64,000 nucleotides of DNA from an uncultured delta proteobacterium (GCA_963745035.1 CAVUVW010000013.1:1536001-1600000), one strand, 5' to 3'; shown: positions 8,719 to 37,676, counted from the first letter of the stretch. Translations and numbers: made by a program. Notes: generated by a model not told the origin, from the letters alone.

Positions 8719-8720
8719 GG

Positions 8721-9335: not shown

Positions 9336-9338
9336 CCG

Positions 9339-10863: not shown

Positions 10864-10969
10864 TAATGTCTCCTGATAAATCCTGACAGCTGCTCCTGTT
10901 GTTCGTTTTTCTTAGTCCATCCGCTTGAGCGCTTCAACCGTTTGAACGGTTTGAACGTTATCTGCTCAC

Positions 10970-11422: not shown

Positions 11423-11643
11423 CGTGTGGATCGCTCCTCAGACAAATTCACGCGCGATCTTATGTGAGAAAAAAACGCGTGACAAGTCCGGATCAAAAAT
11501 TCAGTTGCCAAGCCCACCGGACTTATTCTAAATTGAAGCCGCCCTTCAGAGCTGGATGATGCCGCTTCGGTAAGACCACGATGCTCGCAACCTACGCTCT
11601 CCCCAGTCCAAATCAGGATTCTGTTGACAGCAAGAGGTTCTAG

Positions 11644-13682
11644 ATGCCGAGACTGCAAGGTACGAAGAAGTACTGCGCTCACGCGTTACGGCTTGTGACA
11701 ATCCTAGCTTGGCCCGTCTTACTGGAGGGGCAAACCACCGCGGGCTTGAGCGTTTCAATTACCGGTGCGAGGGTGGCGGCCGATCACCGCCCGGTTGTAA
11801 CCTTCAAACTGAACGACTCAAGGGGAACGCCGCTTGACGTTACCAATGTCGATGGGAACAGCCTCAAATTTACCATTGCCGTTATCAAGGAGGAGAAGAG
11901 CGGCGCGACGAACTATCACAACTACATCCTTACCAAAGTCAGCGGCAAGGAATTCGTCTTCCGAGGCGAACCCAAGCAACCGACGCTTGCCGAAACGCTT
12001 CAACCGCATTTCGACCAGGGCGGCACCGTGACCAAACTCAAACCCGGTCTGTTCAATTACACTTTCAAGACCGCGCTGCCGGCAACTTACGATCGTAATG
12101 CCACTCATGTCGTCGGCGCAGAGTCGACTCGCGAAAATGGCAGATACGTCGGCAATGCGCTTTTCGAATTCATCCCATTCGGCGGCAAAGTCAAAACCAG
12201 CCGGTCGGTCATCGATACCGCCTCATGCAACACCTGCCACGAACCCCTCAAGGCGCACGGCGGCACGCGGCACGAAGCGAGCTATTGCGCGCTTTGTCAC
12301 ACCTCGCAACTTACCGATCCGGAGAGCGGAGAAAACCTCGATTTCAAAGTTCTCGTCCACAGAATACATCGCGGCAAGCTACTGCCGAGCGTGCGTGAAG
12401 GAAAACCTTTTTTCACGGTGGGAGAAAATCAACGCGTCAGCGATTATTCGACGATCCGCTATCCGCAAGTGCTGATGACCGACGGAACGCACAAGGATCT
12501 GAGAAACTGTAATGCTTGTCACACGAGCTCGGCGCAGACCGACCATTGGAAGAGGTTTCCAAGCGTGGCCGCGTGCACTTCCTGCCACAGCAATGTTGAC
12601 CTGGCGACCGGCAAAAACCACAAGCTCGGACCGGCGGCCGACGGGACCTGCATCGGCTGCCATCCGCCGGACGGACCCGAGTTCGGCCCGTCGATTACCG
12701 GCGCGCACACGTTCCCTGGAAATTCAGCGCAACTTCCGGGTGTCGTCTTTGACATCTTGAAGATCACGGACAGCCAGCCGGGCAAGAATCCGCTGGTCAC
12801 ATTCAGCCTCAAAAACAAAAAGGGCGAGCCGCTCGATCCGACAAAGATGCCGAATCTCCGGCTCGTAGTTGCGTGGCCAACCACGGACTACAAAGTTGCA
12901 GTCGAAGAGGACGCCAGAAAAGCTCAGGCGGCGGGCAGCGGCGTGTACACGCTTCAGATTCAACTATACAATTCCTAACGACGCCAGCGGTTCGGGCGCC
13001 GTCGGTATCCAAGGGTTCACCTTCGTCGATCTGAAAAAGCCCAACGGCGAGACCATCAAGGGACAAAGAGACGTGGGATTCAACGTCGTCAAATACTTCT
13101 CGATTACCGATAAACAACCGGTAGAACGACGCAAAGCGGTCAAGATCGAAAACTGCAACGTCTGCCACTTGAAACTAGCGACCCATGGTGAAGCGAGGAA
13201 CAACAGCGAATTTTGCGTCATGTGTCACAACGCCAGCCAGAACCGATGGAGATAAGCGAAAGGCGGCCAAAGGCACCGAGCCCGCCGAGAATGTCCATTA
13301 CAAGAGGCTCATTCACCGGATCCACACGGGCGCAAACCTTGGAGAATCATGGATCGTGTACGGCGGTACCCCCGCAAAGCCTGGACCGATCGAGTTCGGC
13401 GACATCCGTTTTCCAGGCGATCGGAGAAATTGCGTCAAGTGTCACGTACCCGGCGCCAATGAATTGCCGTTGCCCGCGGGATTACTGGCGACGATCATTC
13501 CCCAAAAAGACGGTAGCACGACAGCGCTCCAGCCGATCACCAGCGCCTGTATCGGATGTCATACTCAAGATCACGCCAGGCTCCACATGGATACGATGAC
13601 CGCATCCAATGGCCAGGAAAGTTGCGTGACATGCCACGGCGCCGGCCGCACGTTCGCGGTGGACAAAGTGCATCAAAAATAG
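11644..13682 (+). CDS. OmcA/MtrC-family decaheme c-type cytochrome (frameshifts near 12955 and 13240)
   Basis: Ten CxxCH motifs in 5+5 layout (CNTCH, CALCH, CNACH, CTSCH, CIGCH; CNVCH, CVMCH, CVKCH, CIGCH, CVTCH), each set after a beta-rich domain; HGGTR and VHRIHRG motifs. Confidence 0.9.
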
Positions 13683-13809
13683 AAGGGGCCTACGGATTGC
13701 CGAAGAGGATTTCCCGCGCCGCACTGTGGTGCGCGCGCGACGAAGGCTCAGCATCTAGAGCGGCGGGAAAATTTATGACCGGTTAATTTGGGCAGTTGGC
13801 CCACTTAGG

Positions 13810-14000
13810 TCAATCCCTGATCTCGTACTCCCGCTCGTTCAAAATAATTTTCCCCGAGACCGGCATGCGTTTACGCATCGAGTTGACCGTGTGACAGCCC
13901 TTATCGGCGAGCTGCGCAACTTGAATAACCCTTTCCACCGGCGGAGCGGTCTTGATGTTAAAAAAATAGCTGAGCCCTCGCGCAGCTTGTGAAAAATACT
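13810..14000 (-). pseudogene. Duplicated 3' end of the OsmC-family gene (attachment-site copy)
   Basis: FSQAARGLSYFFNIKTAPPVERVIQVAQLADKGCHTVNSMRKRMPVSGKIILNEREYEIRD matches the C-terminus of 34807..35355; 13864-13943 is identical to 34861-34940. Confidence 0.9.
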
Positions 14001-14253
14001 CCATTTCGAGATCGTCGCCACTGCCGCTTTCGCCAGCGCCACGAGGCTTGGTCGGCGGCGCTATTGCTAACGGAGCCCACTTCGCTCATTGGCAGAATCA
14101 ATAGCGTCCGTGGCTCGGCGCGTCTCCAGCGTCAACGCCGATCTGGCTTAGCTTGAGACCGCTGAGAATCCTTTTTATGGAGCCCGTCCGTCAAGATTTA
14201 TAGCTTGCTTTCAATGGCCGTCCAAATATATTCTCACCCATGCGTGACGCGCT

Positions 14254-17200
14254 ATGATCTGCCCGCAGTGCCAATCCGAAAACTCTAATATTGTCGCCTT
14301 TTGCGACCAGTGTGGAACACAGCTGGAAGCACCCTGCCCACGGTGCGGCGAGCCAAATCGGCAAGGAGCCAAATTCTGCAGACGCTGCGGTCAAGCAATC
14401 GGTGAAACACCCGTCAGGTCTTCTCCCCTCAACGTCGGGACACCGGCACCCGATACCTATGTCCCAAAACACCTCGCTGAAAAGATACTGGCTTCCCGCC
14501 ACAAGCTGGAAGGAGAACGGAAACAGGTGACCGTTTTCTTTGCAGACATAAGAGGATCGACAACTTTAGTGGAGGGGCTCGATCCTGAAGAGGCTCAGAA
14601 GCTAATCGACCCGGTTCTGCGCATCATGATGGACGCAGTCCACAAATACGAAGGGACTGTGAATCTGGTCGCAGGCGATGGCATCATGGCGCTGTTCGGC
14701 GCACCTTTAGCGCATGAGGATCACGCGCTACGTGCATGCTATGCGGCGCTGGCCGTGCAAGAAGAGATGCGTCGCTACCGACAAGGGCTCGGCCAATCCG
14801 AAGAATCGGGCCTACACATCGGCGTGGGAATGAACTCTGGCGAAGTCGTGCTCCGTTCGATCGATACTGATCTCACCATCGACTACTCGGCTATAGGCTA
14901 CACTACGCATCTCGCAGCTCGGATGCAGGAGCTCGCAGGCCCGGGTATCGTTCTCATGTCGTCCACTACGCTGCGGCAAGTCGAAGGCTTTGTTCAGGTT
15001 GAATCCCTCGGTCCCGTGCAAGCCAAGGGTATTTCGCAGCCGTTCGAGGCTTATTCGCTCATTGGTACAACCTCCGCCCGCACCCGCTTCCAAGCTGGTG
15101 TGGGTCGTGGGTTGACACCGCTGGTCGGACGCAACGCGGAAATCGATATTTTCAACAAACTGGTCGAGCAAACCGCGGCGCGCCACGGCCAACATATTGG
15201 CGATGGTTGGCGAGCCCGGTATGGGAAAATCGCGTTTGGTCCACGAATTTACGCGACACCAGCTGCCCGCCGGCTGGCTCGTCTTGGAAGGCGCATCGGT
15301 GTCTTACGGCAGGGCTACCCCATTTTTTCCACTGATCGAAATGCTGCGCCGCTACTTTCAAATCATCGCCGGCAATGGACAGCAGGAAATTCAAGAGCGA
15401 GTGGTCAATTATGTTTTGGAATTGAGCAACATGCTCAAAGATGCCATTCCACCAATCCTTTCATTATTCGGAGCACTCCCGGAAAAAAACCATTCGCCGC
15501 CCTCCGGCGAGCCGGATTGGCTATCAAAACATCAAGATGTAGTCGAGATGGTCAAACGATTCGGCGCGATGGATCCACAACAGCGGCAGCGCCGTATCTT
15601 TGATGCGGTAAAGCGGGTACTTATCCGTGAGAGTCAGCGGCAGCCGTTGCTCATCGTTTTTGAGGACCTGCATTGGATCGACAGCGAAACGCAGGCATTT
15701 CTCGATGGCTTCGTAGAAAGTCTGCCCTTGTCGCAGATTCTTCTCCTGGTGGATTACCGCCCCGAGTACAGTCACTGCTGGAGCGATCGTTCATTCTATA
15801 GCCATCTTCACGTGGATCCGTTAAATCCCAGTAGCGCGGAAGAACTCTTGCAACACCTGTTGGGACGCAACCAGGACCTCCTGCCACTAAGGCAGTTATT
15901 GGCGGAACGTACCGTAGGAAATCCTTTTTTCGCAGAAGAGAGCGTGCGTTCTCTCGCGGAAGAAGGAGTTCTGCTGGGCGAGAAGGGGGCCTACCGGCCG
16001 AGCCTGAAAATTGATGAGATCCGTATCCCGAGCACCGTGCAAAACGTCGTGGCGGATCGTATCGACCGATTGTCTATTGCGGAAAAACATCTGCTGCAGA
16101 CCGCCGCCGTCATTGGCGTAATTGTTCCCTTACCACTACTTCGTGCTGTTGCCGGGTTGCCTGAAGATGAGCTGCAGGGTCAGCTTGCTCACCTCCAGGC
16201 CGCCGAATTTCTCTATGAATCAAACCTTTTCCCCCAGTTGGAGTACAAGTTCAAGCATGCTCTTACCAATGAAGTGGCCTACGGGGCTTTGCTTCACGAG
16301 CGCAAAACTTCTTTGCACGCAAAAATCGTGAGCGCGCTCGAAAAGAGCGTAACCGACAATTTGCGCGATCACATTGAAACGCTTGCTCATCACGCTTATC
16401 AGGGAGAAATTTGGGAGAAAGCCGTAGGCTATTCGTGGCAGGCGGGCGGAAAAGCCTCGCAACGTTCGGCGAATCAGGAAGCACGAGAATTTTTCCAGAC
16501 CGGTTTGAGGGCGTTGGAGCATCTTCCGCAGAGTCGCGCCAATCTGCAACTGGGCGTCGATCTTCGGTTAGAACTTCGCAATCCCCTTTATTTTCTCGGC
16601 GAGTTCGATGAATTACACCTTCGCCTACGTGAAGCCGAATCCATGGCGCAAAGACTTTCAGACGATCGTAGACTGGGACGAGTGGTCAATCTTCTAACCT
16701 CGTACTATGGCCTTGTGGGGAAGCACGATCGCTCCATCGAATTCGGGACGCGTGGCCTAAAAGTCAATCGAGGCGACGTGGAGCTGAGTACAGCTACCCT
16801 CTACTATATGGGCGCAGAATCCCATCTCGTCGGGCAATATGAACAAGCGATTGCCTTTCTCAAGCAAGCTCTCTCAGTCACGGAACTGGAGCGCTTCAAA
16901 TACGAACGATTTGGCACGGCATTTCCCTTATCGGTAAGCTGCCGAATTTGGTTAGCTCAATCGTCGGCTCAACTCGGGCGCTTCAAGGATGGTAAAGCGA
17001 CTGCCGGAACGCGATAGCAATCGCTAAAGAAGCCGTCCACAACTCCAGTCTTGCTTACGCTTATATCAGTCTGGGATATGTTTATCTCGTTCAAGGAAAT
17101 ATTGGTTCCGCGATAAAGGCATTAGAAACCAGTCATGAGATTTGTGGCACCAATAATATTCAAGTATTGATGCCTCACATCGGCTCAAATTTGGGCTATG

Positions 17201-17693
17201 CATACGCTCTCGCCGGACGCCTTGATGACGCTCTGCCCCTAATGGAGAAGGCCGATAAACAGTCGGAGCTGATTGGCCGTAAATCAGCATGGGCATTGCG
17301 GCTCGCTTGGCTGGGTCACGCAAGTTTGTTAGGGGGTCGGCTCAGCGCAGCACGAGAGCAAGCGGAGCGCGCCGTGGCTTTGGCCATGGATACCGGTGAA
17401 CGCGGAAATGAAGCGTGGGCGCGTAAGCTCTTGGGGGACGTTATCAAGAAAAATCATCAGGCCCCATAGAAGCCCTTACACATTACGCTGAGAGTATGGC
17501 ATTAGCGACAGAATTAGCCATGGGCCCACTTCAGGCACAAATTCACTTGAGTCTAGGACGTTTGCACCGTCGTGAGGATCAAATCGAGAAAGCCAGCGAT
17601 GAATTATCTATGGCTCTCACGTCTTATCGCGCGATGGGAATGTCTTTCTGGATAGACGCAGCGGAGCGCGAACTCAGCACTTTAGTTCATTGA
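14254..17693 (+). CDS. Double zinc ribbon + class III adenylate/guanylate cyclase + STAND/AAA ATPase + TPR protein (frameshifted)
   Basis: CPQC/CDQC/CPRC/CRRC; ERKQVTVFFADIRGST, GDGIMALFGAP, HLAARMQ; Walker A GEPGMGKS, Walker B LLIVFEDLHW, GNPFF, YKFKHAL; helical TPR tail. Confidence 0.9.
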
Positions 17694-17714
17694 CGATTAA
17701 AGAGGGCACTCGCC

Positions 17715-20700
17715 ATGATTGTTGAAACGCAGAAACAATCGAGCGTTGTTGCGCCAGCAGGGTCTCAAGTTACGCCCTCCAATCCTTTTATCGAATTTTC
17801 CAAGCACGATATCGAGCAGTCGATCGGCAGCCGGTTTCAACAAATAGTTGACCGAGATCCGTCGCGAATTGCAATTAAGACACGAGAACCGACTCACGAC
17901 CTACGGCGCGTTAAACAAAATGGCGAACCGGGTCGCCCATGCTCTTCGATCGGCAAGCGGTACCAGCAATGAACCCGTTGCGTTGTATGGAGGAAACGAT
18001 GTAAGCACAATTGCCGCGATCCTGGGCGTTGCCAAAGCCGGTAAAATTTATGTTCCTCTCGACAAGTCGTTTTCCGAAGCATGGACGAAGTTCATCCTTG
18101 AAGATACACGGGCAAAGATCGTACTTACCGGAAGTGGCGGGCCAGAGGCAATTAAACCATGGCTACGATCTGAACACATACTAATCGACTTCGACTCACT
18201 CGATCCCCATTTGAGCGAGGAAAATCCGGTTGGGACGGTTTCCCCCGACGATCTTTTACAGATTCTCTACACCTCCGGAACAACGGGCCAGCCGAAAGGA
18301 GTGATGGATAACCATCGCAACATGCTTCATAACACGATGAGATTGACGAACGTGGCGCATATTTCGCCAGATGACCGCATGACATTGGTGCGTCCGCCCA
18401 GCAGCGGCGGGGGGCTGTGTAATCTGTACCTGAGTTTACTGAACGGCTCGGCAATATACCCGGTAAACATTAAGCGCGTAGGATCGACAGCAATCGTGGA
18501 TTGGCTCCGGCACGAAAAGATTACAATCTTCCATTCCCGTGCAGCGAGTATCGTCGTTTTGTCCATCAACTGACTGCCGAAAACACATTTCCTGGTTTGC
18601 GCATCATTCGGGTGGGCAGCGGTCAGCTCTTCGACAAGGACGTGGAGTTATTCAAGCGCTATTTCCCCGACACTTTGCTGTTCCACACTTTTACGTGCAC
18701 GGAAATTCACATCTATCGAGTTCTTTTTCTGAGTAAAGATTCGCAAGTTCCCCGCGGCGCCTTGCCGGTAGGCTACGCAGTCGAGGATGTAGAAGTCTTG
18801 ATTCTCGACGATTCGGGGAACCCGCTCGGAGTAAACGAGATCGGCGAGATCGCGATTCGCAGTGCTCATCTATTCCGAGGGTATTGGAATAATTCGGCGT
18901 TGACGGATGCCGCATTTGTCGGGAGGCCAAATGACCACGGTGAGAGACTTTTTCATACCGGCGACTCCAGCACTACAGCTGGATGGCTGCCTTGAATTTT
19001 TGGGGCGTAAAGATTTTCATACTAAAGATCCGCGGCCACAGGATACACGCAGAGGAAGTTGAGTTGGCGCTGCAACGGTTGGCGGAAATAGGTCAGGCTG
19101 TGGTGACGTCGTACAAAGACGATTATGGCGATGAGCGGCTAGTGGCGTATGTTACACCATCCGGCAGCGAGTTTCCGACGACAAGTGCAAATCCGCAGCT
19201 CGCTGAAAGAATCGCTCCCGGATCATATGCTGCCAAGTAAATTTGTATTTCTTGAGAGCTTGCCATTAACTGCTAGCGGCAAAATCGATCGTCGGGCATT
19301 ACCAAAACCTAACTTACAACGGCCCAAACTCGTCACCCGTTTCAGCGCACCAACCACGCCGGTAGAATCCGTGCTCGCCCAGATCTGGGCAGAAACTTTG
19401 GGCCTAACCAGCGTGGGAGTCCACGATCTTTTTTTCGATCTTGGCGGCGACTCAATAATCGCCTCGCGAATCGTTTCGGCTATCGGCCGAATTTTTCCCT
19501 GGGAACTTACGTTGGCGGAGTTTTACGACACTTGCACCGTGGCACAGACTGCGGAATGGCTGAATCGAAAAGCACCGAGTCCAGAACAGGCGGAGAGAGT
19601 TGCCCTTTGTATTTAAGAGTGCAGTCGATGTCTCCCGAGGAAGTCGAAACCGTACTAGCCGATGAACGGAACAAACGACAAAGACTAACGAAAGCCCAGC
19701 ATCTAGAAAAGGCTAGCGCATTGAACCAAAGAGATGAGCTATATATTTATCTTCTAGAGCGAGAGGGATTCGAGCGACAGCCCAAATTTACCGTCCCACA
19801 CAGGGAAAATCATGATGCTCCGCCTCCTTTGTCGTTTGCCCAGGAACGTTTCTGGTTTCTAGATCAATTCGAGCACGCCCATCCTATCTATAACGGTTGC
19901 AAAGCCGTTCGGCTCATTGGCCGACTGAACATCGAGGTTTTGCAGGAATGTCTTAATCTAATCGTGCACCGGCATGAAGTTCTGAGGACTACCTACCCTG
20001 CTCGGGATGGTAAGCCGATCGCGCGCCTTATACCCTCCTGTTCCATCGAAATTCCGATTGCAGACTTCGGAGAACATCCACAAATTCGAGCTACCCTACA
20101 TAGTTCAAGAATTGACTCGAAAAGAGTGGCTGCAGCCAATAAATCTCGCGGAAGAGTTACCAATCCGTTCGCGATTGTTCAGATAGACGATGCACACTTT
20201 GCTCCTCTTGACGCTGCATCAAATCGCCTCTGACAGTCAATCCGTGCCGATATTTTATCGCGAACTATGGACCGCATACAAAGCTAAATTGCACGGCAGA
20301 GATCCTCAGTTGTCGGCGCTGCCGATTCAATATGGCGACTTCGCCAGTTGGCAACGCCGGCGTGTTTTAACTGACGGTTTTAAGGCGCACCGTGAATACT
20401 GGCGTCAGCGACTGAACGGATCGCCGCCAGTTTTGAACTTGGCTGCCGACAAGCATCGACCTCACGTGCAAAGCTTTGACGGATCGAGGTTGCCAATTCA
20501 TTTCACTCAGCTGATGCAGCAAAAACTTAAGGTATTGAGTGGAGAGAACGGAGTTACGCTCTTTGTAACGTTGCTTACGGCATTTAAGACTTTGCTCTAC
20601 CGTTATACCGCTCAGACGGATGTCCTAGTCGGCTCTCCCATGCTGAATCGCGGACTGTCCGAATTGAGAAAACTTGATCGGGTCGTTTCTCAATACTCTT

Positions 20701-23700
20701 AGTGCTGCGCACGAACTATGCGGACAACCCCAGTTTTCACAAGACGTGCTCCGACGAGTCCGGAAGACTTGTAGAGACGCATTTGAGCACCAAGAATTTC
20801 CGTTCGAAAGGATAGTTCGCGGAATTACGACCCCAGCGCGACTTCAGCGAGACCCAATTTTCAAGTCATGTTCTCTTTCCAAAACGCGTGTTGACACCGG
20901 AGCTTAAACTGGCGGGACTTCGATCCGAAGCAATCGAAGTTGACAGCGGCATGACAAAATTCGATCTAACCCTGTCGCTTGTTGACAAGGAAAATGAAAT
21001 CGGCGGCCATGTTGAGTACAGCACCGACTTATTCAATCGCAGAGACGATCGAGCGTATGGTGGGACATTTTCAAACGCTGCTTGAATCCATTGTTATCAA
21101 TCCTGCCCAATCGATCGCCACATTACCCATACTCACCGGAGCCGAACCGCGCCCGGATAGCGCATCGAATTGAACGACAGAACCGCCGAGTACCCCAAGG
21201 ATAAATGCATCCACCATCTTTTTGAAGCACAAGTCGAGCGCAGCCCGCAAGCCATCGCCTTGGTATTTGAAGATAAACAGATCAACTACCGAGAGTTGAA
21301 TCGCAAAGCTAACCAGCTAGCGAATCACTTAATCACGTTCTAGGCATCGGCCCGGAAAAATTCGTCGGCATTTTCGTCGAGCGCTCCATCGAGATGGTGG
21401 TTGGGTTGTTGGCGATACTCAAAGCGGGCGGCGCCTATGTGCCGTTAACACCAGCGTATGCCTAAAGAGCGGCTGCGTTTCATGCTGGAAGACTCCCAGG
21501 CATCGGTACTGCTCGCCACGAAAGACATAATTAGAAGCGAGAATTGAGGATTGAGGGTCACGCAGTTGCCAGGGAGATAACGAACGGTGGATATTCGGCG
21601 ATCGAAAATTTCCATCCTCCACCCTCGACCCTCGATCCACAAGCTCCAGAGTGGGTTTGCCTCGATCGCGACTTGGCCAAGTATCGAGCAACAAAGCAGT
21701 GACAATCCATCACTTACACTCCAGTCTCACAACCTTTGCATACGTGATCTACACCTCCGGCTCTACTGGGCAGCCGAAGGGAGTGCAAATCGAACACCGC
21801 TCGGTCATTAATTGCCTTTCCTGGGTTTTCGGCACACAGATTAACCTTACGCTGCAGGATACGTGGCTGGCAGTCACGACGATTTCTTTCGACATCGCCG
21901 CTCTGGAGCTTTATTTGCCGCTAATCACAGGGGCAAAGCTTATTTTGGCCAATCGCGACGGGGGTATCGACGCTGTTCAGCTACTCGCGCGAATCAGAGC
22001 TTCGGGAGCGACGGTGATGCAGGCGACTGACCATCGATGTGGAAGCTTTTGTTTCCAACGATTGCGAAACGTCCCGGCAAATTCACGATCCTCTGTGGCG
22101 GCGAAGCGTTATCGCGTCAGCTAGCCGACTGCCTATTGGATGGCGGCGCAGATTCCGTTTGGAATCTCTATGGACCCACGGAGACGACGATCTGGTCGGC
22201 GATCTACCGAGTTGAACCCAGTGATCGACCCGTTTATATCGGGCGGCCGATCGCCAATACGCAGATCTATATTCTCGATAACTACCTGCAGCCCGTGCCC
22301 ATCGGCGTACATGGTGATCTCTATATCGGCGGCGACGGCGTGGCGCGCGGTTATCTGAACCGTGCCGAGTTAACCGCGCGGAGAAAGATTTTGTTCGTTA
22401 TCCGTTCAGCGACGATCCCTGATGCACATCTCTACCGAACCGGCGATCGCGCTCGTTATCGTCCCGGCGGCAATATCGAGTTTCTCGGGCGCAGTGACCA
22501 TCAAGTCAAAATCCGCGGCCGCCGGATTGAGCTTCGGCGAGATCGAAGCCGCGATGGTTCGACATCCGTCGGTCAAAGAAGCCGTCGAGATAGTAGCGGC
22601 TCATGATCGTGGCTCGTCTGAGGAAAATGAATTGATAGGTTATGTCGTCAGCCGTCACGACCCCGCGCCGACCGTCGGCGAACTGCGAAGCTTCCTCCAG
22701 GAAAAAGTTCCTGAATACATGTTCCCGTCGTTGTTCTTATCTTCTCGACGCCCTACCGCTCACTCCCAACGGCAAGGTTGACCGCAATGCCCTGCCGCCA
22801 CCTGACGCAAACAAACTTACAATCGACAAAGGAATTATTGAGCCGCGCAGCGAGTTGGAGGAACTGGTCGCCCAAGTCTGGCGAGAAGTGCTCCAAAATC
22901 GACAAATCAGTATCCACGACAACTTCTTCGAACTCGGCGGACATTCCCTCCTGGCTACTTCAGTTGCCGTCGCGCGCTTGCGCGCGAACTTCAATATAGA
23001 TCTCCCTCTTCGCAAGTTATTCGAACTGCCCACAGTAGCGCGATTGGCGGATCATCTGAAAGTGTCCGCCGGCATGACCGGGGCCTTCGCATCCCGCCAA
23101 TAGTGCCGGTACCCCGTAATCGACCCATCCCGTTGTCATTCTCTCAGCGTCGGCTTTGGTTCTTGGAAAAGCTTGATCCTGGGTTACCGGGTTATAACAT
23201 GCCAGCGGCGTATGAAATCAAAGGCGCGTTGAATATTTCGGTCTTGCGGCAAGCACTAAACGAAGTCACTAGTCGGCACGAATCTTTGCGTACGCGTATC
23301 GTCGAAGTGGGCGGCCATCCCTATCAAGAAGTCGTTTCCACTTTAGATTTTACCTTAAGAGTCGTAGAGCTTACTGATCTGTCCCCACCGCTCGCTAGGC
23401 TCGAGGTCGAGCGGCTGGCGAGCCAAGGATGCGTGGGCACCGTTTGATTTAGCAACGGCCCCGCTGTTGCGGGCGAAACTCTTGCGATTGAGTGAAAACG
23501 ACATTGCTTGCTGATCCTCGAATTTTGGCCAGTATCGTGTCGGATGGTTCCTCCGTGGTTGTATTCTTCGAGGAATTGGCAACGCTTTACGGATCATTCC
23601 TAGAGGGAAAGCCTTCTCCGCTCAATCCCCTCCTAGTGCAAATATGCAGATTACTCCGTTTGGCAAAACGAAATGCTTCAAGAAGGCCCCGAGATTAGCT

Positions 23701-26377
23701 TGCAGCTTCAATATTGGCGGAAGCAACTGGAGATGTGCCAGTCTTCGCTAAATCTGCCGATCGACCACCGCCGTCCTTCGTTGGTGAGCTACCGCGGGGC
23801 GAAGCAGTCCGTTGTGCTTTCCGCCGAGCTTACCAGACGGCTCAGGGAAATAGGCCGGCAGGAAGGCGCCACAACGTTTATGATTTTGCTCGCGGTTTTT
23901 ATCTTGCTGCTCTCGCCATGGCTGGCCAGCGAGATCTCATCGTGGGGGCTACGATCGCCGGCCGAAACCAGTCGGAAATCGAGAGATCGATAGGATTTTT
24001 TATTAACGTTTTGGCGCTTCGAGCGGAAATTCCGGCTGACATTACGTTCCTTGAGTTTATACAGCAGGTAAGGGAGACCTGCCTTGATGCGTATACTCAT
24101 CAAGACTTGCCTTTCGAAAAGATCATCGAAAAAGTCAAACCGGAACGCGAATTCGGCCGCCAACCGCTGGTGCAAATGTTGTTCAATTTGGCCGATACCT
24201 CAGAGCGGCTTCTCGCGCTGCCCCGCTGCGACGTCGTCAAGTTTGCGCCGTTCGCGCTCGCGGCAAAATATGAACTCGTGTTGTCTGCTCCCGAAGTCGA
24301 CGGGAAAATCCAATTGAATATTGTCTACAATACCGAGCTTTTCAGTGAAAGCCGGATCATTGCCATGCTGCGCCAATTTGAGTTCCTGTTGTCTCAGGTT
24401 TCATAGAACCCAACAGAAAGACTTGATCGATTATCGCTCGTCGCTCCATCTTCATGCAGCGATATTGCCGGACCCTAGGAAGGCTTGGGAGAAACCTGGC
24501 AGGGCCCGTGCATGACACAGTAGCGAGCATGGCTCTGCCGCCCCTAATCACCTGGCAGTTATCGATACGAACGGGTATTGGACCTACGCGGAGATCGACT
24601 CATAGCCGTCTGATTACCGCTTACCTGGCAGATATGGAAATTCAACCTCGAGACTTGGTCGCGGTCTATGCTCATCGAAGCGCGACCCTTGTGCCGATCT
24701 TACTAGGGATTTTGAAAGCGAGTGGGGTCTTCCTTATTCTGGATCCGGCATACCCGCTGCTCGGTTAATGGATCTTTACGTGTCGCTCGGCCAAGGGGCT
24801 GGATAGAAATGGCGGGGGCCGGCCCCCCGGCCAAGGAGCTGCCGATTACATCGACAAACTTGATTTACGCTGCCGGATGATCGTGCCAAATAGCAAACAC
24901 CAATGGCTAATCTGCTCCGGGAGATTCACCTCAAAAGGCATTTCCGGAAATTCTCGCAGACGTCCTGCATATGTCGCATTTACCTCCGGGGAGACTGGGG
25001 AACCCAAAGGGGTGTTATGCTGCCACGGGCCGATGACCCATTTCTTACCGTGGCAAGAAACGAGATTCATCACCGCTCGAACGATCGATTCTGTTTCTGT
25101 CTGGCCTTGCCTACAATTACTTGCAGCGCGAAATATTTACCGCGTTGTGGCTAGGAGCGACGGTATGTCTTCCCGGCCGGAAATCGTGGAATCCCGGCTC
25201 ACTAATAGATTGGTTACAGCAAAACGAAATCACAATTCTTCACCTCACCCCGGCTTTAGCGGAATTCTTAGGAACGTTCACGGGCCAGCTGTTAAACTCG
25301 GTGCGGCGTATTTTCTGTGGCGAGGATGTACTTACCAAACAAACGCTGGCCGTCCTCCGAAAGCTTGCCCCAACGCCAAGATCACAAATCTGTATGGCGT
25401 GACAGAGACCCAGCGTGCATCAGGATACTTCGAGATTCCAGAGGGGATTTTATCGCAAAACAGATGCAAAGGAAATTGTTCCACTAGGACGGGGGGTTGA
25501 AGATGTTCAGTTCCTGTTGTTAACACCGAATGGAAGATTGACTGGGATTGGCGAAATCTGCGAACTGTTTGTCCAGTCCACACCTTGCGTTGCGATATAT
25601 CAACGATGAGCAGCTCGCTCGGGAAAAATTTTTGGTCAATCCATTCGGAACGGCGGAGACCGATCGGATGTTCCAGCCGGGGAGATAGGTCGATATCTGC
25701 CAAATGGAGATGTCGAGAGGGTGGGACGCAACGACCACCAAGTCAACATCCGCGGTTTTCGCGTCGAACTCGAAGAAATTGAAACAATCCTAAAGCAGCA
25801 TCCAGTCGTCACCGACGCCGCCGTGATGATGCCGCCTTCCGAGACGGCGCCTGTAACAAAGAGGGCGAGATCTAAACCGTGCGAGAACCTGGTTGCATAC
25901 ATAGTTTCGAACGAAGAAGACTCCCAAAGCTTAAGGGACCTAGTTCATTCATATGTCCGGCTCGCCTCCCCGATATATGGTGCCTTCACGGCAAATCTAT
26001 TGCAAGCGATTTCCGCTAAATCCCAACGGCAAAGTAGATTATCGCGCGTTATCTGCGATTCCTCGACCCGAGGTTGAACTTTCCACGTCATCCATTGCGC
26101 CACGAAACCCTGTTGAAGCAAAAGTGTGTAATATTCTCGCTGAAGTGCTTGGCCAAACGAAGATTGGAATGGATGAGAACTTTTTCCGCCTCGGCGGACA
26201 TTCCTTGCTCGCAGTTCAAGCGGTCGTGCGTATCCAAGAGTCATTCGGCATTACATCGATTTGCGCGTGTTTCTCGATGCGTCACGATAGCGGCGCTCGC
26301 ATGGGAAATCGACCTTCGACTAAAAGCAAAAAGCGCGGCGCCAAATGAACAAGATAATGGCCGAGAGGAGATTGAGT

Positions 26378-26382
<5 letters not shown>
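17715..26382 (+). CDS. NRPS 1: A-T-C-A(Gly)-T-C-A-T with C-terminal REEIEL docking tail (heavily frameshifted)
   Basis: [30 protein letters not shown]; LSFAQERFW; [28 protein letters not shown]; LSFSQRRLW; [30 protein letters not shown]. Confidence 0.85.
21015..22959 (+). repeat. ~1.9 kb direct repeat, copy 1 (C-domain tail, A domain, half T domain)
   Basis: From AGTACAGCACCGACTTATTC to GGCGGACATTCCCTCCTGGCTACT, near-identical to 27773-29699. Confidence 0.9.
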
Positions 26383-31209
<4,827 letters not shown>

Positions 31210-31217
31210 CCGCGGTT

Positions 31218-32939
31218 ATGGGGGCTATCACTATGTTACACGCAATCTTGTACGGAATCGTGATGATTGTTTTGGTGGCATGTTCCGTGCCAAAATCAGC
31301 GACCTGGTTGCCGGACGAGCGTACCGGACTAGGTACGGGAGAGGGATCTTTGTTTTTCGGCAAGAGGCTTCCGATAATAGGTACGGGAAAGGGATTTCCG
31401 CTTTTCGATAACAGGCTTCTGATAAAAGGTATCGAGCGCGTAATTAAGCGGCCGCTCGACACGCATAATGTATCGAGCGGAGAATTTGATCTCTATTATT
31501 TTATTCGCAGGCCCGTTAACCGGAGGGGGGCTAAAACTGTTCTATTCATCGCGGGCGGGCCGGGGTTTTTTAATCCCGGACCCTTCGAGGATTTGACGAT
31601 GGCTGATTTCTTGCTCCAGAATGACGAATACAACGTGGTGCACTTTCATCCGCGAGGCGCAGGATTCAGCCAAGTTCCGCCGAACAATTATTATGACAGG
31701 TTCCTCAAGACTTCTTACGTTGTAGAAGATATCGAATCGATTCGCGAGGACTTAATCAGACTGGGATTTCTCGATCAGGACGGTCGATGGGACGCAGTTA
31801 TCGGCTACAGCTACGGTACCGTTGTGGCACAACAATATGCGGGCACGTATCCACATAACGTCAAAAAAATGCTTCTAATTGGAGTCCAATCGCGGCATCT
31901 GTTTGAGAGTACCAATGAAGCCTTTTCGCAAATTATGCTTGAGATTCGTGATACAAATCGCTATACGCTCGCGACAATTCTTCAGTCGTCGGCGTTTGAC
32001 GACATTCCGCAAGACGATAAACAACATGTTGTCGATCGTGTCTTCGGTATCGGTGAAACTGAGGGGGATTTTCAAAAGGCCGAAAGAATTTTCGGCGGTC
32101 TCCCTTTCCTGATTGCTTCTTTCTGTGAACCGGCGGTTGTGCAGGAACTAAAAAACTCTGGATTAGACCGATTTAGCAAGAAATTCTTTATCGCCCTTAG
32201 GGGATTGCGTCAAGTTGGTTGGAAGCCAACGTCTCCGGATCGGCGTGCTCAGATAGAATACGCGGGACAAATTTTGCGTGAGATTGGCGGGATTACGCCA
32301 GAGGGTGTTGACTGTTCGAGCACCCCTGGACTTGATGATACCGGATCATCGGATCGCGTTTTCTACATCGTAACGACATATGACGGTATAAATATAAGGT
32401 TACTGGACGCATTGCAGAAGAGCGAAAAAAAACACGTGCTTGACGCGCTTCATAGAAGTGGCGGCGAAGCTCATTTTACCAAGCGTATCAACAAATTTCT
32501 TAACAAGGTAGGAATCGCCGATGATGAAAAAATCGTACCGTGGAACCCGGCGAAGCATCAATATGATGGACCGACGATGATTTTGCAGGGAAGCGCTGAT
32601 ACCGTAGGCGCGGGGGGAGCGGCCGAGCACTTTTTCAGCAATGCCCTTACGGGCGTACGTGTACTTATAAAGTATCCAGGCATCGGACACGAGTACCGGC
32701 TTCCGTTAATGTTTCTTAGATCGCTGCCTAAAACTTTTCCGAGTTCCGACCTGTGCGAGTTGGACGATGAAATCCGAGGAATTCGAGATTGCCTAATTTA
32801 TTCTTTTCTAAAAATGAGCCCTAAGGACTTTATCGATTCTTGTGTTAACAAGATTCTGCCTGTCATTATTGAGGACAAAGCGAGTGTGTTCTTCAAGGAC
32901 TCATCTAGCTCCAAGACTATTGCTGGCACATGTCCGTGA
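31218..32939 (+). CDS. Alpha/beta hydrolase, S33 (prolyl aminopeptidase/TAP-like), probable lipoprotein
   Basis: AGGPG oxyanion loop, HPRGAGFS, GYSYG nucleophile, QGSAD Asp, PGIGH His; hydrophobic N-terminus ending VLVAC; starts 8 bp after NRPS 2 stop. Confidence 0.75.
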   Translation: MGAITMLHAILYGIVMIVLVACSVPKSATWLPDERTGLGTGEGSLFFGKRLPIIGTGKGFPLFDNRLLIKGIERVIKRPLDTHNVSSGEFDLYYFIRRPVNRRGAKTVLFIAGGPGFFNPGPFEDLTMADFLLQNDEYNVVHFHPRGAGFSQVPPNNYYDRFLKTSYVVEDIESIREDLIRLGFLDQDGRWDAVIGYSYGTVVAQQYAGTYPHNVKKMLLIGVQSRHLFESTNEAFSQIMLEIRDTNRYTLATILQSSAFDDIPQDDKQHVVDRVFGIGETEGDFQKAERIFGGLPFLIASFCEPAVVQELKNSGLDRFSKKFFIALRGLRQVGWKPTSPDRRAQIEYAGQILREIGGITPEGVDCSSTPGLDDTGSSDRVFYIVTTYDGINIRLLDALQKSEKKHVLDALHRSGGEAHFTKRINKFLNKVGIADDEKIVPWNPAKHQYDGPTMILQGSADTVGAGGAAEHFFSNALTGVRVLIKYPGIGHEYRLPLMFLRSLPKTFPSSDLCELDDEIRGIRDCLIYSFLKMSPKDFIDSCVNKILPVIIEDKASVFFKDSSSSKTIAGTCP

Positions 32940-32970
32940 GCGAAAGCCTTTCGGAGTGACATTTTTACAG

Positions 32971-32999
32971 TTGACAAGGATAGAGCAATTCGTTATGCG
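32971..32999 (+). promoter_or_regulatory. Putative sigma-70 promoter for the small ORF
   Basis: TTGACA-17 nt-TATGCG; perfect -35, weak -10. Confidence 0.35.
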
Positions 33000-33034
33000 T
33001 AAGAAAACTTTCTTTGCGTGAAAGGAGCAACGTT

Positions 33035-33277
33035 ATGGGATTCGCCGCTGGCTTGTTAGCTGAGTCCCCCGCTGAGGAGGCCGTATTCTGGCAAACTTGG
33101 AACGCCATGCCTAGGCAAGAACGGCGAACGTTTCTCAAGCGGCTCGGAAGGGAAAGGGGCAGGCTCATAAATAATAGGGAGGCGCGACAAGAGCTAGCCA
33201 AATTCGTGAGGGAGAATGTGTTTCAGAGGCTGACCGACCGCGGTACTCGCGGTACTAGGGGCAAACGACGACGATAG
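33035..33277 (+). CDS. Small basic hypothetical protein (80 aa)
   Basis: AAGGAG RBS before ATG 33035; MGFAAGLLAESPAEEAVFWQTWNAMP...RGTRGTRGKRRR. Confidence 0.55.
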   Translation: MGFAAGLLAESPAEEAVFWQTWNAMPRQERRTFLKRLGRERGRLINNREARQELAKFVRENVFQRLTDRGTRGTRGKRRR

Positions 33278-33456
33278 CTTCTCAGAATCGCATTTTTCGA
33301 GATCTCCATACTGCTAATCGAACAGTCCAGCTCAGGAGAATCACCGACTGCTTCCTCTCCAGCCGCGTGGCTCCTCCGTGTTGCGTTCGTGAACAAGATC
33401 TTCGATAAGAGAAAATTACCCTTCTAAAAACGCGTAGGTCGGTGTCACAGACGTCA

Positions 33457-33730
33457 AGCGTCGAGTAGAATCGACGCTATTGACCGCGTTGAGTTGTTCC
33501 AGTGATGCTTCTTTCGGGCGTCTTCGACCATACACCGTTCAATTTCACCAACGACTTTGTCGATGGTTTTGCCGTCAAACGAACTCTCTTTTTTTCACTG
33601 GTTGTCTCGATGCTCTGGCTCGGCAGATCTAACTGATCGCTACCTATCGTCAGGCCTCTGATCGATGCGACGAGCCGTTTCACTTCATTTTCTAGTTGCC
33701 GCCCGTTTCCCAGGCACGAGCAATTTTTAA
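33457..33730 (-). pseudogene. Remnant of a sigma-54-dependent activator (AAA+ C7 motif plus Fis-HTH start)
   Basis: LGNGRQLENEVKRLVAS resembles WPGNVRELEN; shifted frame IDKVVGEIERCMVEDARKKHHWN resembles the HTH_8 lead-in; no N-terminal part. Confidence 0.6.
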
Positions 33731-34640: not shown

Positions 34641-34806
34641 CCCTAAACCCAATCTCTTCAATTTCTTTGCCAACCCTTGGCGGCTAAGGCCCAGCGCTTG
34701 AGCCGTTTTTTGCTTGTTCCAATGATGCTTTTTCAGAGCGTCTTGGATAATGCGCCGTTCGATTTCACCAATGACTTCGACGAAACTCGCCACGCCGCCA
34801 TCTATC

Positions 34807-35355
34807 CTAGTCTCTAATCTCGTACTCGCGATCGTTGAGAAGAAACTTGCCGGTAACGGTCATGCGTTTACGCATCGAGTTGACCGTGTGACAGCCCTTA
34901 TCGGCGAGCTGCGCAACTTGAATAACCCTTTCCACCGGCGCAGCGGTTTTGATGCTGAAAAGATAACTCAGTCCCCGCGCGGCCCGTGAGAAATCTTTGA
35001 GCGGAAACTTACCGGTCAGATCGTAGGTCATGCGCAGATCCATCTCGAGATCGTCCAGGAGAACCTCCGCATTTGCGGCCAGGCGTTTGAACTGGCTGAA
35101 CATGCAAAAACCGATCGAGGCGATGAAATATTGGAGCGCCGACGGGCGCTTCCCCGCCTGTTTTTTGAAGTTCTCGTCGTCGCAATAAACCGTGTAGTCT
35201 TCGGGTTGCTCGATCTTGACCAGCGCTTCGTTTAGACGAATGAGCGCGCGCTGCTGCAGGAGATAGCCGTCCGAGTCACCGGAACCATGCTCCCGCTCTT
35301 CCTCATAAACGACCCGAAACTTTCCGAGATCGATGGTTCCCGGAACGGTGGGCAT
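34807..35355 (-). CDS. OsmC/Ohr-family protein
   Basis: PSALQYFIASIGFC ... ADKGCHTVNS two-Cys pattern; starts 3 bp after the Mo-enzyme gene. Confidence 0.75.
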   Translation of the reverse strand: MPTVPGTIDLGKFRVVYEEEREHGSGDSDGYLLQQRALIRLNEALVKIEQPEDYTVYCDDENFKKQAGKRPSALQYFIASIGFCMFSQFKRLAANAEVLLDDLEMDLRMTYDLTGKFPLKDFSRAARGLSYLFSIKTAAPVERVIQVAQLADKGCHTVNSMRKRMTVTGKFLLNDREYEIRD

Positions 35356-35358
35356 GAA

Positions 35359-37585
35359 TCACTTCGCGCCGTGCAGCGCTTGGTAAATCTTTTCCGCCGT
35401 GATCGGCAGGCTCTTGATGCGCACGCCGCAGGCGTCTTCCACCGCATTGGCGATCGCCGCCGCCGTCGGGATATTGCCGGTCTCGCCGATCGGCATGCTG
35501 TCGTAAGGCCCGGCGCCGTGCGGCTCTTGAGTCACCGAGCCTCTGAATACGGGGACATCCTTGATCGTCGGGATTTTGTATTCACCGAAATGAGTCGTTG
35601 CGACTTTGCCGTCGTTGATGATCACTTCTTCCATCAAGGTGTAGCCGATGCCGGTCATGCTGGCGCCTTCGATCTGCCCCTGATGCATCAGCGGATTGAG
35701 CACCGTGCCGGTGTTATGGGTCGAAGTGAATTTCTTGAGCTCGACCTGTCCGGTTTCCGGATCGACTTCCACCTCCGCCACCTGGACGCACATGGAGGCC
35801 GCGTGGATTTTCGAATTGTCGTTGAAGGTCGCATCGACGGCGATCGGCGAGCCCTTGGCTTTGACGATTTCGCCATAGGTCAAGCGTCTTTCCATGCGCG
35901 GGTGCAGCGCTGCGCCTTTGGCCAAGGTGATTTGATCGGGCGCCGCGCCCATTTGCTCCGCCGCCGCCTGCTTTATCGCTTCGACCGCTTTGAGCGCCGC
36001 CGCGTAACCGGCGTTGCCGTAAACCCGCGTCGCCCGGCTGCCGCCGACACCGGTGTCTTTTACACCGGTCTGGGTGTCCAGTTGCTGAGTCTTGATCTGG
36101 CTAAGCGGGATCTTGAGCTCTTCGGCGACGATTTCGCTGAGAATCGTGTAGGTGCCCGCGCCTTGATCCGCCATCGCGGAGGAAATCGTCGCAACACCGC
36201 TCTCATCGAGCGAGATCGCTACCGTTCCGATGCCCCCGGCTGGCGTCCACTGTACTAGAGCAACGCCGCGCCCGACGTTCTTCGGCTTTGGCCGTTGGTA
36301 GCCCGAATCCTCCAGCGCCTTTTTCAGCGTCTCGTCGGTCTTGATGTAGCTGTACTCCTCGCCGGTAGGATCGATATCGCCGTCGTGCATGAAATTTTTC
36401 TGCCGCAGCTTGATCGGGTCCATACCCAGTCGCTTCGCGATCAGATCCATCTGGCTCTCGTTGGCGAAAAATCCCTGGGGATCGCCGGGCGAGCGCATAT
36501 GGCCGCAGGGAATTTTGTTCGTATAGACCATATGCTCTTCGAGGAATACATGGGGGATCTTGTAAGGCCCCGCCGACAGGTGCGGGCCGTTGAGAAAAGC
36601 GTTGGGCTTGAACGCGCCGTAGGCGCCGCTGTCGAAGATGAAATTCATGTGATGAGCGACTAGCGTCCCATCCTTTTTCACGCCGGTCTTCACTTGAATG
36701 ATCGAAGCATGCCGTGGATTTCCGGCGACAAACTCCTCTTCGTAGTCCATCACCAGCTTAACCGGGCGGCCGGCTTTTTTGGACAGCAGATACACCACGG
36801 CGAGATCCATGAAATCGCCCTTGCCGCCGAAATCGCCACCGATGTAGACGGGATTGAAGTTGAGCTTCTCCTGCGGCAGCTTGAGCGCGTTGGCGACCTG
36901 CTCGCGCACGCCGTACGGCACCTTGCTGCACGACCAGAACTCCGCCGAGCCGTCCGGCGCGGTGCTGACGACACAGGAGTGCGGCTCGATGTAGCTTTGA
37001 TGAACCACCGGCGTGGTAAATGTGTTTTCGACGATGATGTCGGCTTGGCGAAAACCGGTTTCCAGATCGCCCTTGCCCCAAGTCACGTAAACAAAATCAT
37101 TGGTCGGCTCTTTTAGGGGCTTGGGCAACCCCTTATAGGTAGTCACCTCTGGATGAAGCAATTTCGCGCCGGGTTTGAGCGCCTCGACCGGATCGAGCAA
37201 CGGTTGGGTTTCTTCGTATTCTATTTCGATTAGATTGAGCGCCTCCTCGGCGATAAGCTCGTCGTCCGCCGCCACCGCCGCCACTTTCTCCCCAATAAAT
37301 CGCACTTCGCCGTCCGCCAGAATCGGCATGTCGTATAGCCGCCGGCCGATTTTCAAGCCGGTACAGTCTTGGCCGGTGATCACCGCGCGCACGCCAGCAA
37401 GCGCCTCTGCTTTACTGGTGTCGATCCGCTTGATCTTGCCCGAAGGCGATCGGGCTGCGCAGCAGTTTCCCCCACACCATTCCCGGCACCGTGATGTCGA
37501 CGGCGTACTTCGCCTCGCCGCTGACTTTCAGCTCGCCTTCGACTCTGGGAGTTGGATTGCCTACGACTTGTTTCGACGATGCCAT
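35359..37585 (-). CDS. Xanthine dehydrogenase family molybdopterin-binding (CoxL-like) subunit (frameshift near 37440)
   Basis: KVSGEAKY, LLRSP, VRFIGEKVAAV, IGGDFGGKG, DQGAG, GGSR, VEVDPETG, GQIEG, IGE, AIANA. Confidence 0.9.
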
Positions 37586-37676
37586 CAGTAAACCTCCTGC
37601 CACCGCAAATTGTTTAGGATGATGCGCTGCGCTTGGTCGTGACCCGATTCAGGCCGTCCGATGCGCAGTGAAGAGC

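Follow-up and report, generated by a model that had tools for sequence, protein, structure and literature searches.

STAND proteins (signal transduction ATPases that have numerous domains) are known in biosynthetic gene clusters as DNA-binding switches: the LAL and SARP/AfsR regulators of actinomycete clusters join a P-loop STAND ATPase to tetratricopeptide repeats (TPR), have a DNA-binding domain at their start or end, and their action on promoters is direct. In the TIGR03903 family ('TOMM system kinase/cyclase fusion protein'), a cyclase is followed by a long STAND/TPR region, and the name records an association with a natural product, a ribosomally synthesised and post-translationally modified peptide (RiPP); to our knowledge no function has been assigned to the family. 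The PycC cyclases of Pycsar systems share the class III cyclase fold. Cyclase-ATPase-TPR-LuxR proteins of Mycobacterium tuberculosis, of which the Rv0386 type combines a class III cyclase, a MalT-like ATPase, TPR and a LuxR helix-turn-helix (HTH), have a described domain order and a Gln-Asn substrate-defining pair (10.1101/2024.03.06.583649). Here we analysed a window of 64,000 nucleotides from an uncultured delta proteobacterium (GCA_963745035.1, CAVUVW010000013.1:1536001-1600000; G000:C13:1536001-1600000 in our numbering, from a genome of 7.43 Mb in 28 contigs) in which a cyclase-STAND gene is followed on the same strand by a four-module nonribosomal peptide synthetase (NRPS) and an exported hydrolase. 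The reading we favour, and hold to be reasonably probable, is that of a cluster-situated STAND sensor whose cyclic-nucleotide output replaces DNA binding, the first gene being an integral and conserved signalling component of a mobile, self-contained operon. On this reading, what is new is a STAND regulator with a second-messenger output inside a biosynthetic cluster, together with an NRPS that lacks a thioesterase (TE) and has non-canonical adenylation (A) domains. We found no published description of a cyclase-STAND gene joined to an NRPS in the literature covered, which was searched at the level of listings and abstracts.

Domains were called with Pfam in the open reading frames (ORFs) of the window, in read-through frames and in a genome-wide search. 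The genes follow each other on the plus strand in the order cyclase-STAND, NRPS (17715-31209) and lipoprotein alpha/beta hydrolase:

14254 to 17693, plus strand: cyclase-STAND gene (Pfam; tblastn with the intact 1154-residue orthologue from the relative G012)
17715 to 26382, plus strand: NRPS gene A, read through (Pfam, read-through frames, tblastn with G012 proteins; at least 29 frame switches)
26357 to 31209, plus strand: NRPS gene B, read through (Pfam, read-through frames, tblastn with G012 proteins; at least 23 frame switches)
31218 to 32939, plus strand: exported alpha/beta hydrolase, 573 residues, intact (Pfam, N-termini, alignment, AlphaFold2, Foldseek)

The cyclase-STAND gene stops with TGA at 17691-17693 and is separated by 21 nt, including AAGAGGG, from the NRPS start ATG at 17715, which matches residue 1 of the intact G012 loading module. 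NRPS gene B starts near 26357 and overlaps the stop of gene A at 26380-26382, and its final frame ends with TAG at 31207-31209, 8 nt before the hydrolase ATG at 31218. Gene order, strand and both gaps are as an earlier, sequence-only reading of this stretch had described them, and so is the lack of accessory genes: TE, phosphopantetheinyl transferase (PPTase) and MbtH have zero Pfam matches in the window. Genome-wide there are three ACPS (PPTase-type) matches, all outside the window, and none to MbtH, and the only TE belongs to another NRPS at C13:611k. The same reading would have fallen to a terminator or promoter separating the genes. Since the gaps are only 21 bp and 8 bp there is no room for either, and a scan of 13700-33600 gave 11 promoter-like sites against 15.5 ± 3.7 in shuffled sequence and 29 terminator-like sites against 21.8 ± 5.1, nothing above the shuffles. 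The genes are presumably co-transcribed. An ORF of 97 codons at 32984-33277, at the end of the 14254-33277 range of that reading, has no Pfam match, nor do the small ORFs in 13.8-14.2 kb and 33.4-34.6 kb, and an Rfam search of 11000-35500 returned 0 matches.

The first gene encodes, in order, a double zinc ribbon (DZR), a class III cyclase (~14518-15060), an AAA_16 P-loop ATPase (~15176-15745) and a TPR sensor (to 17690). Pfam found Guanylate_cyc (PF00211, 62.8 bits against a cut-off of 21.9) and DZR in 14254-15600, and AAA_16 (73.4 bits against 32.6) with weak TPR in 15116-17014. The intact G012 orthologue scores 62.9 bits for the cyclase and carries TPR_12 (62.2 bits) and TPR_2 (43.1 bits); the TPR pieces of the window lie below the Pfam cut-off yet are collinear with it to residue 1154. 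In tblastn, its residues 8-1154 aligned in four frame pieces at 63-76% identity, so the gene spans 14254-17693. The protein thus has the parts of a STAND switch, an ATPase with an intact Walker A motif, a C-terminal repeat sensor and a separate effector, which is here the N-terminal cyclase. The window copy retains Walker A (GEPGMGKS) and the metal-binding Asp residues in FFADIRGST and GDG. Of 86 family members, 80 and 82 retain the two metal-binding Asp, 84 the Arg and 80 the Walker A Lys, and an alignment to the cyclase structures 2w01 and 3r5g preserves both metal-binding Asp and the Arg; we take the roles of these positions to be those in mammalian and bacterial cyclase structures.

Comparison with the described proteins sets this family apart from each of them. 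Like Rv0386-type proteins as described, it has an N-terminal cyclase, a STAND ATPase and TPR in ~1100 residues and a Gln-led substrate pair; by that description it differs in lacking a LuxR HTH, having an N-terminal double zinc ribbon, carrying His in place of Asn and heading an NRPS operon. Indeed, no HTH family, the C-terminal LuxR type included, is among the 11 Pfam matches of the 1154-residue orthologue. The best NCBIfam match is TIGR03903, at 288.2 bits against a cut-off of 705.75, with residues 93-1100 on profile positions 281-1255 of 1267; the kinase part (1-280) is absent, the score is far below the cut-off and an NRPS takes the place of a thiazole/oxazole peptide system as the partner. 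Weak NCBIfam/Pfam matches were also obtained, at 42 bits to AfsR and 34 bits to TPR_MalT. The likeness to LAL and SARP/AfsR proteins lies in a STAND ATPase with TPR inside a biosynthetic cluster, but the effector here is a nucleotide cyclase, and any control of transcription would pass through a second messenger.

Several lines of evidence indicate that the linkage of cyclase-STAND and NRPS genes is not due to chance. In one relative (G012:C63) every gene is open: a cyclase-STAND protein of 1154 residues is followed after 25 bp by an adenylation-thiolation (A-T) protein of 664 residues, a C-A-T-C-A-T protein (C, condensation) of 2216 residues, a docking-C-A-T-C protein of 1579 residues and a hydrolase of 639 residues. 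At the G015:C4 locus the gaps are 10, 14 and 12 bp. A DNA search of 40 relatives found the cyclase and NRPS collinear on one contig in 10 of the 24 other genomes of the genus, including the unpublished G005, and domain mapping gave the full or contig-truncated order in eight relatives (G012, G023, G019, G003, G018, G015, G006, G020). A second, paralogous cyclase-NRPS locus lies in the source genome itself (C13:814.7-833.3k). Among 77 cyclase-STAND genes with downstream sequence, an adenylation or NRPS gene is the sole recurrent same-strand neighbour within 400 bp (12 cases), all other neighbour families having at most two members. In a FastTree tree of 96 rows, the NRPS-linked genes fall in two clades, the label requiring 4 changes, a number as low as which was reached in 0 of 500 shuffles; one clade is Binatia (9 rows, all NRPS-linked), and the other joins two Alphaproteobacteria metagenome-assembled genomes (MAGs) with Terracidiphilus and Limnocylindria (4 rows), has a Rokubacteria case beside it, bears the labels of three or four other phyla and carries a single A-T-C protein:

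L072:5812-9036: locus of the mixed-phylum clade
L073:13367-16600: locus of the mixed-phylum clade
L081:13375-16588: locus of the mixed-phylum clade
L062:4450-6045: locus of the mixed-phylum clade

A reciprocal test started from the loading A-T module and looked at its relatives in metagenome contigs from JGI, where 37 loci had adequate flanks: 17 combine a STAND gene upstream with a C domain downstream, 1 has just the STAND gene, 3 have just the C domain and 16 have neither (Fisher p = 1.3e-6, which is overstated as kin are not independent). The STAND gene is therefore upstream in 17 of the 20 metagenome NRPS loci with this loading module, and loading-module relatives of at least 60% identity with any upstream sequence have it in 11 of 11. 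The sequence-only reading had been prepared to give way if the cyclase were not recurrently linked to homologous NRPSs; neighbour counts, tree and reciprocal test all show recurrence. The 80 best cyclase-STAND loci, taken from one-genome-per-species contigs, are mostly from Rokubacteria/Methylomirabilota, Binatia and Burkholderiales MAGs, and the closest is titled Candidatus Binatia (86%), in agreement with an earlier guess at Binatia.

The A-T-C proteins of the mixed-phylum clade are ~1075 residues long and start 22-100 bp after the cyclase-STAND gene in Terracidiphilus and the two Alphaproteobacteria MAGs; the Limnocylindria contig ends within the downstream adenylation gene. Two A-T-C proteins are intact and have a FadD-like A domain, with the C motif HQxxxDG in one and both His missing in the other. 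The ORFs after the A-T-C gene in the two Alphaproteobacteria loci have no Pfam or NCBIfam match and look non-coding.

The NRPS has the order A-T, C-A-T, C-A-T, C-A-T, terminal C. Gene A comprises A1 (~17767-19186), T1 (19371-19562), C (19826-20865), A2 (~21163-22740), T2 (22864-23058), C (23127-24451), A3 (~24595-25980) and T3 (26121-26255), and may be two genes as in G012, with a boundary near 19616/19721. Gene B comprises a docking N-terminus, C (26593-27795), A4 (~27919-29571), T4 (29598-29729) and the terminal C (30057-30884); in intact relatives it is a protein of 1579 residues with TubC_N followed by C-A-T-C. Four PP-binding and four Condensation match groups were found in the window by the genome-wide Pfam search. 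All four T domains of the window have GGxS and one intact HHMMSDAWS is present, and in intact relatives every C domain has HH/HQxxxD, the first C HQxxxD and the terminal C HHxxxDQ. The assembly line ends in a C domain, with neither a TE nor a reductase for release, and PF00975 is absent from the window, as the earlier description of a TE-less NRPS had it. From these motifs, the terminal C is probably active and serves as the release step.

The A-domain codes, whose positions were placed by GrsA motifs, are a lead and not the output of a prediction tool. In intact relatives A1 reads AGSHRGVTYK or VGRSHGRAVK, A2 DILQLGLIWK (Gly) or DLFNNALTYK, A3 NHRH(L/F)GFRAK and A4 the beta-alanine-like VDWV(S/F)SL(A/G)DK; the window has DILQLGLIW at both A2 and A4. 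Both A1 and A3 are without Asp235, the residue that binds the amino group, and for A1 this is compatible with a non-amino-acid starter. The product earlier predicted, acyl-Gly-(Glu/Aad-like)-Gly-X, keeps its Gly at modules 2 and 4 and an acyl starter that A1 would fit, but the Glu/Aad-like assignment of module 3 was not verified by the code of intact relatives (NHRH.GFRAK).

The hydrolase carries a lipobox, LVAC, and four of five relatives have signal peptides, which bears out the export proposed for it; being exported, it is not a cytoplasmic release enzyme. Pfam matched Abhydrolase_1 (54.6 bits against a cut-off of 25.8) and Hydrolase_4. The GGPG motif (G113-G116), Ser198, Asp461 and His491 are invariant in 31 sequences, the fold and triad of S33 enzymes, and the AlphaFold2 model (pLDDT 84) has a large lid. 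These features, an alpha/beta fold with GGPG, Ser-Asp-His, a large lid and a signal peptide, are shared with S33 hydrolases such as Hip1 of M. tuberculosis and the tripeptidyl and prolyl aminopeptidases, but the best Foldseek matches (DM3, prolyl aminopeptidase, Hip1, TnmK1) have TM-scores of only 0.3-0.5, and the prolyl aminopeptidase profiles score far below their cut-offs (32-36 bits against 168-260 in NCBIfam; TIGR01249 32.6 against 259.75 and TIGR01250 34.3 against 167.65). Sequence similarity to proline iminopeptidases is limited to residues 101-224, and the 89 homologues found are all uncharacterised metagenome proteins.

As assembled, the locus requires at least 55 frame switches (cyclase 3; NRPS 4 + 25 + 23, or 52; hydrolase 0), and the cyclase and NRPS genes are open only when the frames are read through. 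The cyclase-STAND gene is broken at about 15191, 17010 and 17440-17466. Elsewhere in the window open frames reach 1034 codons, and another NRPS on the same contig has an open frame of 2443 codons. We compared window 14000-33400 with Logan contigs of four public soil and rhizosphere runs from three studies. Where the window is unbroken the short-read contigs equal it (not one difference across 1103 nt of hydrolase and 472 nt of cyclase-domain sequence), and at its frame changes they carry 1-bp indels, 12 listed and 44 further, many of them in two or three runs. The sites include 15191, where a base of the window is missing from the short-read contigs, 18969/18972, 19021, 19187, 28091, 28094, 28182, 28346 and 28350. 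Applying the 12 listed indels lowers the switches from 3 to 2 in the cyclase, from 4 to 2 in the loading module (N1) and from 23 to 20 in the last NRPS gene (N3), and lengthens open frames, for example from 633 to 920 codons in the cyclase. Most of the frame breaks are consensus errors, because the short-read contigs match the flanks exactly yet carry 1-bp indels at the breaks; the need to re-polish, raised before, was real. We consider it very probable that the cluster is intact in nature. A reading of the locus as a pseudogene, drawn from the frame switches, was rejected on the same indels. Part of the poor consensus may stem from near-identical module repeats:

21012 to 22959, plus strand: internal duplication copy 1 (A2-T2), near-identical to 27770-29699
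27770 to 29699, plus strand: internal duplication copy 2 (A4-T4), near-identical to 21012-22959

This duplication appears as direct-repeat families D1-D18 of 85-100% identity with a spacing that drifts over 6732-6758, and short-read contigs hop between its two copies.

The linkage and the short-read comparison together bear on the simplest alternative, that two expanded families are adjacent by chance or that the locus is a decayed relic with a pseudogene NRPS. The frame changes as assembled would fit it, as would a cyclase-STAND family that is large and mostly not NRPS-linked; but intact collinear orthologues exist, the linkage occurs in two separate clades and in the reciprocal test, and the listed frame-changing indels of the window are absent from short-read contigs with exact flanks. 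This explanation is largely refuted, and we give it almost no credence.

The locus lies within a segment that is absent from the same site in three congeners:

11490 to 34807, no strand assigned: inserted segment (island), missing at this site in three congeners
13814 to 13997, no strand assigned: direct repeat copy 1, a duplicated 3' end of an OsmC-like gene inside the island; 184 nt with 85% identity to 34811-34994, including an identical core of 81 nt
34811 to 34994, no strand assigned: direct repeat copy 2, at the island's right border, formed by the 3' end of an intact OsmC-like gene (OsmC Pfam match)
33517 to 33710, minus strand: C-terminal remnant of a GAF/sigma-54 enhancer-binding protein (EBP), residues ~421-486 (tblastn 66% over 32 residues and a weaker continuation with a stop)
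34644 to 34787, minus strand: second EBP remnant (HTH_8 end, residues 470-517), abutting the right border (tblastn 58% over 48 residues)

In G018:C6, G015:C2 and G012:C282, the counterparts of window 1-11489 and 34808-37600 are collinear, with just 0.66-1.3 kb between them. Since three relatives show an empty site, the ~23.3 kb of 11490-34807 are an insertion, which extends beyond the 14254-33277 range of the earlier reading and upholds the mobility that it had proposed. The island has a G+C content of 0.48-0.56 against 0.56-0.63 outside. G012, empty at this site, has its own copy of the cluster elsewhere, and the flanks of homologous loci have nothing in common with those of the window. No integrase or transposase was found by Pfam among the window proteins and small ORFs. 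The intact OsmC-like gene is at 34807-35355 on the minus strand. The query for the EBP remnants was the intact EBP of the second locus of the source genome; the remnants at the OsmC site suggest repeated insertion and decay. A similar EBP remnant lies beside OsmC in G043:C50 (L116:13991-14435).

We propose the following mechanism. A ligand, either an external cue or the product itself, would bind the TPR sensor of the cyclase-STAND protein, after which the protein would oligomerise through its AAA_16 module in an ATP-dependent manner. Class III cyclase domains are active only as dimers, and oligomerisation would pair the N-terminal cyclase domains as such dimers, turning the cue into a cyclic nucleotide. 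That nucleotide would govern production of the peptide or the response to it. The NRPS, with its loading A-T and three C-A-T modules, would build a short peptide to be released by the terminal C domain and not by a TE, and the exported S33 (prolyl-aminopeptidase/Hip1-like) hydrolase would work beyond the cytoplasm, its substrate being the product or something related to it. Of the mobile sense-signal-synthesise module first proposed for this stretch, linkage, mobility and anatomy stand; its further parts, the peptide as ligand or output of the cyclase, maturation by the hydrolase and a defence role, did not emerge from our analysis.

A number of observations weigh against the favoured reading. 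Only two of the five full-length cyclase-STAND paralogues in the source genome are NRPS-linked, three being elsewhere, and one of its three NRPS loci lacks a cyclase-STAND gene, the other two having both cyclase and hydrolase. Among the 80 best loci an adenylation gene is directly downstream in 7, and 73 are not beside an NRPS. The hydrolases of different loci are 24-28% identical to that of the window, and the G012 hydrolase lies 1.5 kb downstream of its NRPS. Short-read contigs leave 24352-27586 essentially uncovered (depth 0 or <1), so the breaks there cannot be attributed to error. No cNMP-binding (cNMP, cyclic nucleoside monophosphate) gene lies near either locus of the source genome, with over 100 kb to the nearest of 12. 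Upstream of 9 cyclase genes, the CRP-like motif TGTGA-N6-TCACA occurred at 1 site against 1.07 in shuffled sequence and the sigma-54 -24/-12 motif at 0 against 0.66, and there were no RNA runs among the public runs listed for the stretch. Finally, the cyclase active site departs from the canonical one. His takes the place of the transition-state Asn in 76 of 86 members and in the window, so the Asn-Arg pair is lacking; where the adenine-specifying Lys would stand, 72 of 86 have Gln and the window copy, as assembled, has Leu; and at the partner position 56 of the 86 have Thr and 19 have Ser (Thr/Ser 75). Neither the Lys-Asp(Thr) pair expected for ATP nor the Glu-Cys/Gly pair expected for GTP is present. 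With these departures, the domain is a candidate cyclase as judged from its sequence.

The same active site could be taken to mean that the protein does not signal at all and is an NRPS accessory, either a TPR scaffold or chaperone or an altered cyclase domain that supplies or modifies a building block. The Asn to His and Lys to Gln changes are family-wide, two of the four A domains lack Asp235 and would need unusual substrates, and the tight gene spacing suggests stoichiometric co-production. Yet the metal-binding Asp, the Arg and Walker A are conserved as in active cyclases and STAND ATPases, most members of the family have no NRPS nearby, and we found no precedent in the literature searched. 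An accessory role seems to us distinctly improbable.

A closer relative of the sensor reading is a signal-receptor pair, in which the NRPS peptide is exported, trimmed by the hydrolase, re-enters the cell and is sensed by the TPR of the STAND cyclase, which answers with a cyclic nucleotide, in a manner like quorum sensing; the cyclase would then receive the product of its own cluster and not an outside cue. Sensor and synthetase have stayed together in inheritance across duplication, transfer and reduction to one A-T-C module; the hydrolase is exported and hence not a release enzyme; and TPR proteins that act as peptide receptors are known from the RRNPP family (10.1101/2024.03.06.583649). In a Rokubacteria MAG (L054:13158-16864) a gene for a stand-alone adenylation enzyme comes after the cyclase-STAND gene, with SBP_bac_5 and BPD_transp_1 genes, a peptide-type ABC importer, next in line, but this adjacency is a single case; the island has no importer or exporter, and none is conserved across loci. 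An enhancer-binding protein of 520 residues with GAF, Sigma54_activat and HTH_8 domains lies convergent and just downstream of the hydrolase in six of the six type II loci examined (G000, G003, G006, G015, G018, G019):

L011:807-2366 (G000:C13:812806-814365): GAF/sigma-54 activator
L201:6591-8105: GAF/sigma-54 activator
L202:6716-8230: GAF/sigma-54 activator
L019: GAF/sigma-54 activator
L020: GAF/sigma-54 activator
L024: GAF/sigma-54 activator

This activator, of which remnants persist in the island of the window, could be a receiver of the cyclic nucleotide or merely conserved context. In the window, though, it is degraded, and nothing connects the product to the TPR domain. On balance we regard a signal-receptor pair as rather unlikely. 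A fuller version would be a portable circuit for signalling between cells, in which an NRPS peptide or an A-T-C acyl conjugate is matured by the hydrolase and received by the TPR, the cyclase makes a nucleotide that is possibly non-canonical because a Gln/His active site is found family-wide, and feedback runs through the GAF/sigma-54 activator; this, too, we think unlikely.

The cyclase also invites comparison with defence systems, which is where the sequence-only reading had placed one of its possible roles. An anti-phage or conflict system would combine an Avs-like STAND sensor with a Pycsar-like alarm nucleotide and an NRPS product as chemical effector. Matches of 50-57 bits to PycC-type cyclases among the 5027 PADLOC models, a STAND/TPR architecture common in defence and the location of the module on an island are what such a system might show. 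The PycC matches are generic, however, and no better than the 62.8 bits of the Pfam cyclase; the STAND part, to which the cyclase is fused, has 0 matches among the 5027 models; the neighbour is an NRPS and not a cNMP-activated effector, with no cNMP_binding match within 100 kb; and a 13-kb NRPS would be slow and costly as an effector of abortive infection. We judge a defence role to be very improbable.

In these loci a STAND switch carries a nucleotide cyclase, and duplication, horizontal transfer and module loss have passed it on with an NRPS in soil lineages that are uncultured, namely Binatia and MAGs labelled Acidobacteriota, Chloroflexota, Alphaproteobacteria and Rokubacteria. Should the link be regulatory, it would point to second-messenger control of secondary metabolism in these phyla, and silent clusters might be woken by co-expressing or activating the cyclase; should the peptide be the ligand, the locus would represent a new type of signalling circuit. 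Intact orthologues for expression exist, for example at the G015:C4 and G012:C63 loci. The window also illustrates that a region of a long-read MAG that appears to be a heavily decayed pseudogene can be an intact cluster.

Further observations concern the paralogues and the surroundings of the locus. The NRPS of the source genome that has no cyclase (G000:C13:606000-622000, L029) is a C-A-T-C-A-T-TE protein in the 2443-codon open frame and provides an internal contrast. The unlinked cyclase-STAND paralogues are at G000:C13:200735-206344 (L016) and G000:C20:39038-41274 (L017), three genes of which two are in tandem; for one of them, a near-identical gene occurs in a MAG with the title Nitrospiraceae (L058), possibly an issue of binning or labelling. 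Upstream of the intact G012:C63 cluster, which is of type I (L009:38-4882), are ABC importer genes, an M24 (prolidase/creatinase-type) peptidase and a gene of the glyoxalase/bleomycin-resistance fold, none of which is in the window. A tRNA-Asn (37677-37752, minus strand) and an ORF for a Mut7-C RNase (37825-38370, minus strand) lie 3 kb past the right border of the island, with no link to the insertion seen. Inside the island, two ORFs for MtrC/MtrF-like multihaem cytochromes (444 and 165 residues; 11644-12978 and 13185-13682, plus strand) precede the first direct repeat and are absent from the empty sites of the three relatives; they may be one gene split by assembly error.

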